This document shows positions 9,475 to 63,628 of a DNA stretch of 64,000 nucleotides, one piece after another. The stretch is from a virus (taxonomy: Duplodnaviria > Caudoviricetes): IMG/VR virus record IMGVR_UViG_2974799246_000001, positions 128,001-192,000 of that record; one strand, given 5' to 3'. The stretch's first letter is position 1; each line of letters begins with the position of its first letter. The notes beneath the pieces are model-generated. The model worked only from the letters and a program-made list of their open reading frames with translations. It was not told the origin of the DNA and searched no databases. A program made the translations under genes and the position numbers.

Positions 9475-9502
9475 AATACCCTCCGTTATTCATGTTAGGT
9501 AT

Positions 9503-9856
9503 TTACAGATTCTGTAAGCGCTGCCACACAACGAATTTGACGTTTAGGGCATGTTCTTCACTCTCGGCAGCACGTCGGGGTTCATACTTAGGAGCGTACT
9601 GACGCAGATGGTCCTGACGGACTGCGAGTTGCGCTTCAATTTTGTGGATTGGATTCAGCACTTGACTGTACGAATGGTCTTCGATGATAACAAGGTTATC
9701 AATACGGAGAACACCAGGAACTTCAAACACTGTGGGCAGTACGCCGGGTTTGAATGCTGAACCCATAACTGTCTCATGGTATTCAACAAGCGCTTTAACC
9801 AACAAGCGGCCTGCGGATTGACTCAGTGTAAGATTGTACTCAGTACGGAATTCCAT
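9503..9856 (-). CDS. hypothetical protein
   Basis: ORF with AAGGAG SD. Confidence 0.6.
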   Translation of the reverse strand: MEFRTEYNLTLSQSAGRLLVKALVEYHETVMGSAFKPGVLPTVFEVPGVLRIDNLVIIEDHSYSQVLNPIHKIEAQLAVRQDHLRQYAPKYEPRRAAESEEHALNVKFVVWQRLQNL

Positions 9857-15358: not shown

Positions 15359-15620
15359 CTCTATCCTCTAAAACAAATTGTAGTGTGCCCTGTATATTTA
15401 CAGCTTCAAGGCGCTTACCTGTAGGCATTAACAGGCCATTCAACACACCCAGCATATCAGCGCTGTGGCAGTCAGGTGCTATCTGGTGAACGTAGATATC
15501 ATCAGGCACATCACCTGGGTTAAGCTGCCAAGCAGTACGCAAGGCAGCACCCATGAATGCCGGGCGCTCTACCAGATGCCTGTTCAAAAATGAACATACG
15601 TCTTCGGCGCTCAACGTCAT
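15324..15620 (-). CDS. hypothetical protein
   Basis: ATGA overlap with the polymerase stop. Confidence 0.5.
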   Translation of the reverse strand: MTLSAEDVCSFLNRHLVERPAFMGAALRTAWQLNPGDVPDDIYVHQIAPDCHSADMLGVLNGLLMPTGKRLEAVNIQGTLQFVLEDRDEDLPTAEEPR

Positions 15621-18822: not shown

Positions 18823-18831
18823 TATTTACAG
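18823..18831 (-). promoter_or_regulatory. CTGTAAATA promoter-like motif (representative copy, upstream of DNA pol)
   Basis: The same motif lies in the correct orientation upstream of about 11 replication/metabolic genes (see findings). Confidence 0.7.
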
Positions 18832-28159: not shown

Positions 28160-28192
28160 GATGTTCTCCTAAATACAATGATATTTACAGAC

Positions 28193-35538: not shown

Positions 35539-36054
35539 CTATTTACAGAATCGGCTCTGGAATTTCTGCCAATCTTTCCACCAGTACTCTACGCGCCTTC
35601 CGTTTCGAAGCGCATAGTCGATGCAGTTCTGTGTGCCAGACGGTGCACCACAACATAGAGCGATCAGACGGTCTGTGTTGTCTACCATGAAATGGTTCCG
35701 CTTGTTTAGCGCAAACACCTCTTGCCCATCCATATGTACCCAGTCCTCTTTGGACGTCACGATATGAACTTCGTGGCTTTTATTCAACAGACCGTCAAGC
35801 TCAAACACACTAGACATATTCCAGCGGTTATTAAATCCGATATAAGGGATACATGACACAACACGGTGTCCTTGCTCGATAGCAGCAGTGGCGATTGCCA
35901 TGTCAAAGCCGAGAGCGCAACCAACCCAAATTTCAGTGTCGTTCTCGATACGCAGCAATCTTCTATGAGCAAAAGTATAGAGGCGGCGTTTTGCCTCAGG
36001 GCCGAAGCCACCCAGATACTGTGGGCGATGACCGGTGAAGGATAGTTTTTCCAT
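35539..36054 (-). CDS. SLOG-superfamily YspA/DUF1273-like protein
   Basis: FTGHRP, GCALGFD, IPY, RNHFMVD, SGTxNCxxYA. Confidence 0.8.
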   Translation of the reverse strand: MEKLSFTGHRPQYLGGFGPEAKRRLYTFAHRRLLRIENDTEIWVGCALGFDMAIATAAIEQGHRVVSCIPYIGFNNRWNMSSVFELDGLLNKSHEVHIVTSKEDWVHMDGQEVFALNKRNHFMVDNTDRLIALCCGAPSGTQNCIDYALRNGRRVEYWWKDWQKFQSRFCK

Positions 36055-36072
36055 GCTCTGTATTTACAGAAC

Positions 36073-39904: not shown

Positions 39905-40510
39905 TTATACCAGCGCACGGCCGGGAAGATCGAAGTTTTTACCAGCGGAGTAATCACCCAGCGCTTGGTAGAGAGAGTTACGCAACATCTGTTCGATGAT
40001 ATCGGAGTTATGAGCCGATGCGTCTTTGAATGCGACTTCAATCGAATCAGTTCTCGGATTTACGACAGCGTAACGCAGCGGGCAGATCGTTTGTGCTTCA
40101 CACCAGGCATCAATACGCGGCTGTAAGTCAGGCGTGATTGGGATCTGGAAGTCGGCTAGCGTAAACACTACGCTTTGAATAGGCGGTGGTGCAGACAGCG
40201 AATTGTATTTACCTTTCGTGTCGAGTCGCTCCATGGCCATAGAGGCATCATAGACAGACTGATAACCTTCGCCAACGGTTTTGATATCAGCCATCTTGAA
40301 GCTATGCGTTGACAAGCCTTTGCGAATCAGCTTGGCGATCTTGAGATCGTAATCACCAGAATCGTCAGTAGCAAAGGCAACGAACGCGTAGAAGGAGATC
40401 CCATCAGTTTCGCGCAGCAGACGATGGTCCAACACACGAAAGCCCACGACACTCGAAAGTGCCTGGGCTGTTACCTGAGGCCCCTTAGATAAGGAGACGA
40501 AGATTTGCAT
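39905..40510 (-). CDS. hypothetical protein with MQIFVSLSK leader
   Basis: TAATG-coupled ORF. Confidence 0.6.
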   Translation of the reverse strand: MQIFVSLSKGPQVTAQALSSVVGFRVLDHRLLRETDGISFYAFVAFATDDSGDYDLKIAKLIRKGLSTHSFKMADIKTVGEGYQSVYDASMAMERLDTKGKYNSLSAPPPIQSVVFTLADFQIPITPDLQPRIDAWCEAQTICPLRYAVVNPRTDSIEVAFKDASAHNSDIIEQMLRNSLYQALGDYSAGKNFDLPGRALV

Positions 40511-46841: not shown

Positions 46842-46922
46842 AGTCAAGGACCTATGTATAGTGTATGAATGATACTCGCTATTTACAGTTTTTGAGGGTA
46901 TAGACAAAAAGAAGGGCCACCA

Positions 46923-47784: not shown

Positions 47785-48321
47785 TCATGCGGATTGAAGT
47801 TGAAGAATTTCTTCGTCTTCTATATCCGCGCCAGACCACGAACGAATCACGGATGCGTTTCCACGATTGCCTGTCAGCATCATCTTAACTGATGGCTTGG
47901 CATCGCGTTCTGCGTAATAGTCGGCGAGAGCTTTCTCTGTACCGAACCATAAAATGGAGTGACCACCCTTAGGGCAGATCAAGAATTGAGTAGGACGTTG
48001 TGGAACGTTCAACGTCAGATAGAAGTCACCAGCGCCAGTAGGACCAAGCATTGGCATAGGCTTCATGATCTGCTGAAAGTCTCCAGCATCTTTAAGACGT
48101 GTATCGCCCAGCAACCAGATAGCACCTTCTTCTCCCTCACGCACAGCACTCAAGGTACCTTTACGTGTTGTGATAGAGCCAAAAGTGTCTTGATCGAAAC
48201 GGGCTAGACCGAAGATGAGTGATGCGAGTTTCTTCAGGTCAGGGGTCGTGCATGGACTATCAATTTTTGCCATGCCCTCGGACCCTACTGTAATCTTCGA
48301 GAGTGATACAAAGATTTCCAT
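47785..48321 (-). CDS. hypothetical protein with MEIFVSLSK leader
   Basis: CTAATTT motif upstream. Confidence 0.6.
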   Translation of the reverse strand: MEIFVSLSKITVGSEGMAKIDSPCTTPDLKKLASLIFGLARFDQDTFGSITTRKGTLSAVREGEEGAIWLLGDTRLKDAGDFQQIMKPMPMLGPTGAGDFYLTLNVPQRPTQFLICPKGGHSILWFGTEKALADYYAERDAKPSVKMMLTGNRGNASVIRSWSGADIEDEEILQLQSA

Positions 48322-48388
48322 ATTGTCTTCCAGAGCTGTATGATTAATTGTGATATAAAATTAGTGTTTGATCAGACAATTCTGAAAC

Positions 48389-49711: not shown

Positions 49712-49852
49712 TTTCAATTCGCCCTTAGTTCTAATGCGTTACACCAGTTATTTACAGATTTTAGACAAAAAGAAAGGACCACATCCAAAACGGAGGGTCC
49801 TTACGTGTTACAATGGTTTGAATGATAACGCATCGGCAGTGGGCGCTGTCGA

Positions 49853-50050
49853 TTAGGCAAAGCTCATCTCCCAACGCGGTACAACGCGGAAGAATTGCTT
49901 AAAGTGGGACGGTGGGTTCTGCTTGATGGACTCAAGTTTCTTTTCCACAACGTCATAATCTTTTATGCCACTCTCAACGCAGTGAGTGGTGAATGTACCG
50001 TCAGCCTCAATCAAATCGGCGACAACACGGTAGCTTGGTTTTCTCAGCAT
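49853..50050 (-). CDS. hypothetical protein
   Basis: AGGAG SD; CTGTAAACA upstream. Confidence 0.55.
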   Translation of the reverse strand: MLRKPSYRVVADLIEADGTFTTHCVESGIKDYDVVEKKLESIKQNPPSHFKQFFRVVPRWEMSFA

Positions 50051-50141
50051 CTAGTCTCCTGAAAACGAAATTCTCATTGCTCTGAATTATGTTTACAGAT
50101 TACTGGAGTAGTCACAAAAGAATAAAGTAAGACAAATCTTA

Positions 50142-50477
50142 AACTCCAATAGGTACTCGCTGGAATTCCTATTGGAGTTCACCCTCAACCGATGACGGTC
50201 GGCAGAAGGTGTTCTCCCCGTGCTTTTCGATTGCACCAGCACGGTAGCGCTTGCGGTCTTACGCTCTTGTCATGCAGCGGGCCGGCAGGGATGGTAGCAT
50301 TTCCCGCCGCAAAGAGCAGCCGCTTTCGGCCATTAGCGATAACGCGGTGTTACGCTTAACGGCCCGACTCTGTGGCCGAGTCTGTACAAAAAAGAGTTCG
50401 GCCTATTCCCCAATTCGGCAAAAAGAAATAAGCCGAACTAAACAGTCAACGCACACTCCATATGCGCTGTTTTGTAC
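50142..50477 (-). ncRNA. candidate structured non-coding RNA (~340 nt)
   Basis: At least 8 consecutive stems filling an intergenic gap. G-U pairs form only on the minus strand. CTAATTT motif 6 nt upstream. Confidence 0.55.
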
Positions 50478-50517
50478 TGTAACAAATTAGAAACATCCTG
50501 CAATATTCAGACAATTC

Positions 50518-51105
50518 TTAGTTCAACATCGGAACGAGATTTTGCAAGAAATGTTTGCGATCAAACGAACTGATTCGGTGCGGATGATCGACGTGCATGT
50601 TCCATCCTTTGTTGAACAGCAGCACGTTCTTCGGCAGGACAACGTTAATGCCAACGCGAGTGAACGAATCACGAACGGCAGTCACTGGATTGTCGTCAAC
50701 CAGAATCCAAGTACCTTCACCGTACTTCTCGTTCAGGTAAGCAATCTTATCAGGATGCTGGCGTGAGTCCAGACAGTCGATGTGGTCAAACAACGACAGG
50801 TGCTTCTCCAACACCTTGCGTGTGTAGCGTTCACCTTTGGCGTGATAGCCACGATGCGTACAAATACCGACACTGAAACCGTCGCGCACCAGCATTGCAA
50901 CCGTTTGGATGAAGTAGTCACGCATGTTAGCTTCGAGCATGAAGCGACCGTCAGCCAGCATCTCCACGAAAGGTTCGTGACCATTCTCTGGCGTAATGTA
51001 CGTGTCGGTACCTGGGTAGATTCCCCAGTTCATCAGATAGCACAGCATGAAGTTATGCGTATCGAATGCCGTGTCGTCCATGTCGAAGAAAATATATTTA
51101 ATCAT
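50518..51105 (-). CDS. HAD-superfamily 5'(3')-deoxyribonucleotidase-like phosphatase
   Basis: FDMDDT motif I, THR, K, LVDDNP, WN. Start re-assigned to 51105 (TAATG). Confidence 0.8.
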   Translation of the reverse strand: MIKYIFFDMDDTAFDTHNFMLCYLMNWGIYPGTDTYITPENGHEPFVEMLADGRFMLEANMRDYFIQTVAMLVRDGFSVGICTHRGYHAKGERYTRKVLEKHLSLFDHIDCLDSRQHPDKIAYLNEKYGEGTWILVDDNPVTAVRDSFTRVGINVVLPKNVLLFNKGWNMHVDHPHRISSFDRKHFLQNLVPMLN

Positions 51106-59068: not shown

Positions 59069-59114
59069 TCTGTAAATATCCTTACTTGGTTAACGCGCGT
59101 GTGGGATATTGAAA

Positions 59115-63564: not shown

Positions 63565-63628
63565 ACCATCCTCTATTCGTATCGTAATTTCAGCATATAC
63601 GCATATTTACAGATTAAGGACAGCCAGA

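Follow-up and report, generated by a model that had tools for sequence, protein, structure and literature searches.

The window analysed here, a 64,000-nt stretch of a 265,146-bp phage genome, contains a 467-nt gap between two genes on the minus strand, a HAD-like gene (50518-51105, with the stop codon at 50518) and an ORF of 65 amino acids (49853-50050). For the product of the HAD-like gene, there is a match to PHROG 415 (polynucleotide kinase/phosphatase-like, E 1.9e-13) and none in Pfam. This protein was considered as an RNA-binding partner and rejected, given that its weak match to SRP19 (E 0.025) overlaps with the region of the HAD DD motif and is in all likelihood spurious. The gap includes three ORFs of 49-79 amino acids that are broken by frameshifts or stops in relatives, in agreement with the sequence-only reading of this DNA, which had seen no credible ORF here and had proposed a highly structured non-coding RNA driven by a late-type promoter. 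Almost all genes from ~46 kb to 184 kb of the 265-kb genome are on the minus strand, and crude gene calling yields a second gap of the same size (468 nt) at 40042-40509 of the window.

Folded as a minus-strand RNA, the segment 50142-50477 reaches -153.4 kcal/mol (z -6.50 against dinucleotide shuffles, with none of 100 shuffles equally good), compared to -120.9 kcal/mol and z -3.01 for the plus strand of the same region, so that the shuffle comparison on both strands proposed in the sequence-only reading comes out on the side of the minus strand. All nine stems that had been claimed on this strand were found where that reading had placed them. The argument that G-U pairs point to a minus-strand RNA is also borne out: in an alignment of 18 sequences, 155 cells of the paired positions are G-U and 21 are A-C, which favours a minus-strand RNA over a DNA structure. 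The RNA is encoded by a single-copy locus in the phage genome.

The gap is matched by blastn in 44 phage records at 69-99.6% identity, which belong to Alexandravirus, Sasquatchvirus Y3 and the SNUABM_7/13/34/45 group, and in all of these, it is unannotated and flanked by the same two genes. From the 18-sequence alignment, RNAalifold derives 92 pairs, of which 28 show compensatory changes. The curated structure comprises 104 pairs, with 90.4% of the cells paired; read on the opposite strand, it is 83% paired. Two-sided changes are present in 32 of the 104 curated pairs, compared to 15.4 +/- 2.3 in column shuffles (none of 500 reaching the observed number) and to 3-12 pairs in slid controls, where the partners were moved by 1-3 columns, all these counts resting on related sequences. 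An all-against-all covariation scan was set aside as dominated by phylogenetic signal. In total, the structure consists of eleven helices and an H-type pseudoknot that are maintained by compensatory changes.

The 5' domain (P1-P3; 50384-50477, minus strand, like all features of the RNA below) is closed by P1 (50477-50470/50391-50384; GUACAAAA/UUUUGUAC), which is invariant and encloses two hairpins. The loop of P2 (50469-50463/50453-50447; three pairs with two-sided changes) contains a GGAG motif that is invariant in the 18-sequence alignment and in a 7-sequence alignment, Yoloswag and SNUABM_5 included. P3 (50439-50425/50409-50395) is a 15-bp hairpin with two-sided changes in six pairs that is followed by a C and a U run; it looks like an intrinsic terminator because the U run behind it is 6 to 12 long among relatives. 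In Yoloswag, the sequence of P3 is unrelated and its shape is preserved. P3 with its U run may attenuate transcription or may be no more than a structural arm that P1 closes. The next region (50328-50382), delineated from the curated structure of the 18-sequence alignment, consists of P4 (50382-50378/50370-50366), a hairpin with the loop GGCC, the low covariation counts of which are due only to misalignment of the window row, and P5 (50364-50358/50334-50328), a three-part hairpin with the invariant loop GUAACACCGCGU. The base of P5 covaries, with AGCG/CGCU in the window and CAGUG/CACUG in Y3.

Further downstream, P6a (within 50253-50323) is GCGG/CCGC in the window and GCGAGG/CCUCGC in the SNUABM_34 group, and P6b/P7 (50317-50303/50281-50263) shows two-sided changes in four and five pairs, respectively, with the conserved motif GCUACCU in the loop of P7. 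The following UAAGAC (50261-50256) is invariant in all 21 sequences aligned across genera. A closing helix between UAAGAC and a downstream GUCUUAC was considered and rejected, given that full pairing occurs in only three of the 18 sequences (the window, SNUABM_35 and Y3), the remaining 15 carrying a G at the downstream site that would give an A-G mismatch. After the pseudoknot comes the purine stretch GGGGAGAA (50212-50219), which is conserved and varies little or not at all across genera (GGGGAG, GGGGGAG or GGGGGU), and then P10 (50211-50199/50192-50180), a hairpin with the hexaloop CCGUCA and two-sided changes across genera in 9 of 12 pairs. Within P10, GACCGUCAUC is invariant in Alexandravirus, Y3 and the SNUABM_34 group but not in the Yoloswag/SNUABM_5 group, where CCGUCA sits in the loop of a P5-like hairpin instead.

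The last helix, P11 (50179-50168/50153-50142), is a 12-bp hairpin with a variable loop and the universal stem ACUCCAA/UUGGAGU, which is invariant in sequence as well as in pairing. P11 is 95.6% paired, with two-sided changes in four distal pairs and either G-U or A-U as the basal pair; the JA29 group has AAG/CUU in place of the AUA/UAU found elsewhere. It is followed by the U-rich tail UUUAAGAUUUGUCUUACUUUA (50121-50141), where UUUAAGA and UCUKACUUUA are invariant in the 18 sequences. Judging from its similarity to the tails of the other terminators of this phage (UUUUUGUCU), this tail is probably the 3' end region of the RNA. The invariant nucleotides of the RNA are located in loops and junctions (GUAACACCGCGU, GCUACCU, CCGUCA, GGAG and UAAGAC) and, together with the sequence-invariant stem of P11, make up a pattern that is typical of RNAs that contact proteins or adopt a defined tertiary form. 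The sequence-only reading also suggested a switch, with two alternative partners for AGTTCGGC. The alternative partner, GCCGAA, is present in the window and is absent from the Y3 (Sasquatchvirus) and SNUABM_34 lineages; within Alexandravirus, this second partner does not vary at all and is therefore uninformative as to covariation. With the alternative pairing conserved only within Alexandravirus, the putative switch is not supported.

The pseudoknot (50218-50250) is an addition to the earlier reading. In its stem S1 (50250-50247 with 50236-50233), the strand that follows UAAGAC pairs with the loop of P9, and P9 itself is stem S2 (50244-50238/50224-50218), the two being joined by an A-rich loop 3. 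The strands come in the order S1-5', S2-5', S1-3', S2-3' that defines the H-type, and both stems covary: two-sided changes are found in 6 of the 7 pairs of S2 and in two pairs of S1, which is 100% paired in the 18 sequences. The position of S1 is fixed across genera and is occupied by eight different helix sequences, namely GCGCU/GGYGC in Alexandravirus, ACGUU/GACGU in Y3, AGCGC/GCGCU in SNUABM_34, GGGCGCG/CGCGCCU in Yoloswag, GGGCGCC/GGCGCCU in SNUABM_5, GGUGCG/CGCACU in JA29, GGUGUG/CGCACC in the metagenome contig L073 and AAGUGCCU/AGGCACUU in the metagenome contig L111.

Relatives were traced by synteny from the HAD-like gene to the clamp-loader gene. Homologues of the RNA are present in Yoloswagvirus and Rivsvirus (nhmmer E 4e-10 and 5e-14, respectively, for the 3' half), and a shorter form, 230-290 nt as opposed to ~340 nt, is found in Salmondvirus JA29 and in contigs L073 and L111. 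The short form lacks P1-P5, has the P10 loop CCGACA and, in JA29 only, retains GGAG in the corresponding loop. The common 3' core consists of UAAGAC, the pseudoknot, GGGGAG, the hairpin with the CCGNCA loop (in most lineages) and the long hairpin with the ACUCCAA/UUGGAGU stem. This core is shared by six lineages of Erwinia and Dickeya jumbo phages and always lies between the genes for a HAD-type nucleotidase and the clamp loader, which are the only neighbours common to all lineages. A covariance model of the core scores 46-143 bits on 21 members, and in the alignment across genera, 90.1% of the cells are paired and 19 of 31 pairs show two-sided changes, the 21-member alignment having been fitted to the model, which favours the structure.

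A first pattern scan of viral contigs returned mostly chance matches. A second one, with nhmmer and a covariance model as filters, added L073, L111 and L113 as the only new members, and a scan of metagenomes added L171 and L158, the other matches, L183 and L127, being L038 and L113 that had been found already. The pattern scan of bacterial genomes with the same filter yielded no member. As judged from these scans, the family is restricted to jumbo phages of Erwinia and Dickeya and to a small number of metagenome contigs. The Pseudomonas relatives PaBG and Lu11 lack the RNA together with the HAD-like gene and have no gap at this place. In Alcaligenes phage Afa-NA1, a 483-nt gap lies in front of the clamp-loader gene in place of the RNA (L233:2020-2400) and contains about eight direct repeats of CAACTGATACATGAG and its variants that resemble iterons or a promoter array.

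Three short-form loci contain long open frames (L049:2709-3392, L073:574-1071 and L111:8825-9412) that start inside the HAD gene, in another frame, and cross the RNA. The register in L111 differs from that in L049 and L073, which identifies these frames as by-products of a stop-poor structured sequence; such frames could mislead gene callers. Small hypothetical ORFs are annotated over the homologous RNA in Yoloswag (gp204, L047:3271-3435) and pEa_SNUABM_5 (gp214, L048:3286-3411), one on each strand, and both are probably false gene calls.

Comparison with the known RNA families did not place this element in any of them. None of the 4227 covariance models of Rfam 15 matches the whole window at the gathering score, and at E up to 10, the region 49950-50650 yields three chance-level matches only (E 0.19-6.1; two miRNAs and a lncRNA). 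Six homologous loci produced no recurrent family, and neither in these six nor in the region itself is there a match to GOLLD (RF01998) or ROOL (RF03087), even at E up to 10. ARAGORN detects no tRNA or tmRNA genes, either in the window or in the 265-kb genome, in line with the earlier reading, which had recognised no tRNA or tmRNA hallmarks, and no description of this RNA was found in the literature searched. Taken together, the fold, covariation, ORF and Rfam results support the central claim of that reading, a non-coding, structured, minus-strand element absent from the catalogues: the gap ahead of the clamp-loader gene holds a real, conserved, folded RNA gene of ~340 bases with a pseudoknot that is present in no RNA catalogue. 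It is also the only large non-coding gene found in these tRNA-free 260-kb genomes. Complex-folded, covarying RNAs that span several phage genera are rare and have repeatedly proved to be ribozymes, riboswitches or the cores of RNPs.

The motif CTAATTT lies at 50484-50490, 6 nt before P1, exactly where it had been noticed from the sequence. Genome-wide, 20 copies of the motif are located on the minus strand as opposed to 3 on the plus strand, a total no higher than expected by chance, and 15 of the 23 copies are intergenic. It is located 24-46 nt before the genes for the tail sheath, the endolysin and several products without assigned function. The flank of the copy in front of the RNA (CTAATTTGTTACAGT) is nearly identical to the tail-sheath promoter (CTAATTTGTTATAGT), and ACGCTAATTT is found upstream of the tail sheath gene in JA29 and Yoloswag as well. 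Before the RNA, CTAATTT is kept in every genus and, in JA29, L073 and L111, overlaps the end or the stop codon of the HAD gene. Given that it is intergenic and strand-biased, we take CTAATTT to be a genuine promoter class for structural and lysis genes, and the late-type promoter postulated for the RNA is a reasonable reading of these patterns. The start of transcription is predicted at 50477-50478, that is, an A or G at +12/+13 of the motif and the first base of P1, because the aligned CTAATTT sites share a conserved AGT at +12 to +14.

The stop codon of the HAD-like gene is immediately followed by the 11-mer GAATTGTCTGA (50507-50517), of which the 265-kb genome contains just two copies (0.06 expected per strand). 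Each copy is on the minus strand and precedes a CTAATTT motif by 7 or 16 nt, the two motifs being 2.1 kb apart (48354-48382 and 50484-50517). The second copy precedes a gene for a 178-aa protein (47785-48321). The 11-mer does not vary among the Alexandravirus and Y3 rows, and the three rows of the SNUABM_34 group have a single base changed (GAATTTTCTGA). It may represent a shared upstream promoter element or a factor-binding site.

At the other end, in the short-form loci, the RNA is followed by a stem and U7-9, a canonical terminator, and then by the clamp-loader promoter CTGTAAAT; with a promoter upstream and a terminator downstream, the RNA in these loci appears as an ORF-free bounded unit. 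Some lineages present a clean promoter-to-terminator unit, and the hosts, Erwinia amylovora and Dickeya solani, are amenable to laboratory culture and infection, which makes the function of the RNA directly testable.

As a whole, these observations are best explained, in our assessment with moderate confidence, by a stable, complex-folded minus-strand ncRNA gene of ~340 nt that would form a late-class unit of its own and possibly act in trans. By the logic of the motifs, the RNA would be transcribed as a separate unit starting ~12 nt after CTAATTT and would end at or shortly after P11 or, in the short-form phages, at the canonical terminator. Within this explanation, and as a part of the confidence placed in it, we tentatively propose that, late in infection, the RNA acts in trans as a scaffold or decoy that binds protein. 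Its partner would then be a factor conserved among these phages or among their hosts, and contact would be made by the invariant stem of P11, the GGAG loop and the ACCG-type loops that recur in the RNA. The recurring elements within the RNA are short loop motifs only (ACCG-type and GCUACC), with 2-3 copies per RNA, which are few for a sponge. A type III antitoxin (ToxI-like) or another repeat-array decoy can be rejected, there being no tandem repeat in the alignment or the fold, where a ToxI-like RNA would have a repeated unit of 34-45 nt, and no match in Rfam. An antisense target in the phage genome receives no support either, the reverse complements of all 10-mers of the RNA occurring in the phage genome at chance level, with the longest antisense run at ~13 nt and ~3 such runs expected by chance.

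The packaging RNA (pRNA) of phi29 is similarly a phage-encoded structured RNA of a few hundred nucleotides, and it works within a protein machine; the present RNA shows no similarity to pRNA in sequence or fold and no match to it in Rfam, and pRNA is not known from phages other than phi29-like podoviruses. A bolder and somewhat unlikely extension is that the RNA is the core of a new late-phase phage RNP or RNA machine that, for example, captures a conserved host or phage factor, such as the RNA polymerase holoenzyme, the ribosome, a nuclease or a defence protein. If this were the case, the capture would enforce the switch from middle to late expression or would disarm defence, and the pseudoknot, GGGGAG, P10 and P11 would constitute the active module, with the 5' domain as a lineage-specific add-on.

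Two features run against a separate trans-acting unit and bring in a different reading, which we consider unlikely, namely, that the RNA is the cis-acting leader of a late transcript that continues into the 65-aa ORF and the clamp-loader gene. P3 and its U run, ~105 nt downstream of the promoter, could keep most transcripts from extending into the conserved core, and in Yoloswag, the stretch from the RNA to the next ORF shows neither a terminator nor a promoter motif, an arrangement that would suit a 5' leader in that phage. As a leader, the RNA could be an attenuator based on P3 and the U run, a processive antiterminator like HK022 put, or an operator titrated by a protein like the pseudoknot leader of T4 gene 32. 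The late promoter followed by a terminator-like hairpin recalls lambda PR'-tR' with its '6S' RNA and HK022 put, promoter-proximal RNAs of late or early transcription with a link to antitermination, where a phage promoter, a structured RNA and a terminator-like hairpin likewise fall within ~100 nt. A put RNA of HK022 consists of two stem-loops with ~70 nt, and a conserved complex fold is lacking in the lambda transcript. In the present RNA, most of the conserved part comes after the terminator-like hairpin, and an internal terminator is missing from the short form. A fixed position ahead of replication genes would suit a leader as well, and an H-type pseudoknot in a replication-gene region, followed by a conserved unstructured U/A-rich tail, is reminiscent of the gene 32 leader. 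That leader, however, is a short operator within an mRNA, whereas the present RNA is a 340-nt multi-domain molecule with a promoter motif to itself and, in three lineages, a terminator as well.

Several further observations weigh against a leader. In JA29, L073 and L111, the terminator and the CTGTAAAT promoter separate the RNA from the clamp-loader gene, and the 65-aa ORF of Alexandravirus has its own CTGTAAACATAA motif. Where other CTAATTT sites fall within 100 nt of a gene, the gene follows after 5-46 nt, and there is no leader of this kind. The downstream gene is not conserved and varies between genera (the 65-aa ORF, other ORFs or the clamp loader), and the most conserved helix, the last hairpin P11, is found where a riboswitch would have its variable expression platform, so that the RNA does not have the layout of a riboswitch or cis-regulatory leader in which a conserved aptamer and a variable platform directly control one conserved class of downstream genes. 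An intrinsic terminator alone can be dismissed as well: P3 fits the shape, but ten more helices and the pseudoknot covary around it.

Less probable still is a self-contained RNA machine, that is, a ribozyme or a self-assembling 'ornate' RNA that would function through its own three-dimensional form, of the ROOL and GOLLD kind, which are roughly 580-800 nt in size and usually neighbour tRNA genes. The multi-helix junctions, the pseudoknot and the invariant loops and junctions (UAAGAC, GUAACACCGCGU, GCUACCU and CCGUCA) would suit such an RNA, and the palindromic loops GGCC in L4 and CGCG in L5 could make kissing contacts. The parallel extends to the way in which these RNAs became known, as orphan, pseudoknotted ncRNAs with many helices that were found by covariation and have no assigned function; like the present RNA, ROOL and GOLLD are carried by phages (PMC12286853), and they also occur in prophages. 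The palindromic loops are, however, missing from the short form, none of the present results points to catalysis, the RNA is far smaller than ROOL or GOLLD in either of its forms and matches neither them nor any ribozyme model, and it belongs to phages of Enterobacterales that have no tRNA genes near it or elsewhere in the genome.

We find it highly improbable that two unrelated elements are juxtaposed in the gap, with P1-P3 being the terminator region of the HAD operon and the functional RNA starting only at P4 or at the 3' core, produced by read-through or from an unrecognised start. The stem of P3 with U6-12, the retention of its shape in the unrelated Yoloswag sequence and the complete lack of P1-P5 in the short form are compatible with such a division. 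CTAATTT, however, is upstream of P1-P3 rather than after it, no promoter motif is present between P3 and P4 in the window, the bases that come first after the predicted start are paired with the U run in the invariant P1, and in P2, the GGAG loop does not vary in either alignment. Finally, the idea that the gap is an overlooked protein gene or acts at the level of DNA, as an origin of replication or a structure of single-stranded DNA, has a negligible probability and is already largely refuted: the replication-gene neighbourhood, the iteron-like repeats in the equivalent gap of Afa-NA1 and the long open frames across the short-form loci speak for it, but the G-U cells would become A-C mismatches if read on the other strand or as duplex DNA, the RNA gap has no repeats, the ORFs of the window are broken in relatives, the short-form frames are in different registers, and an origin at the RNA (178.3 kb) was rejected with the cumulative GC-skew minimum 7-17 kb away, at 185-195 kb, where the direction of transcription switches.

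Two short motifs divide the genes between them, the second one being CTGTAAATA. It occurs 28 times in the genome and 11 times in the window (0.5 expected), with copies on the minus strand at 9500-9508, 15395-15403, 18823-18831, 28182-28190, 35540-35548, 36061-36069, 46880-46888, 49749-49757 and 63604-63612 and on the plus strand at 59070-59078. It is located 4-65 nt before the genes for DNA polymerase, the sliding clamp, the clamp loader, primase, ligase, SbcD and HNH proteins, often directly after a terminator. From this placement, CTGTAAATA probably serves this clade as its middle or replication-class promoter, so that two separable promoter classes, CTGTAAATA for replication and CTAATTT for structural and lysis genes, are available for annotation. 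In the Lu11 record, the CTGTAAATA motif is annotated as a putative middle/late promoter.
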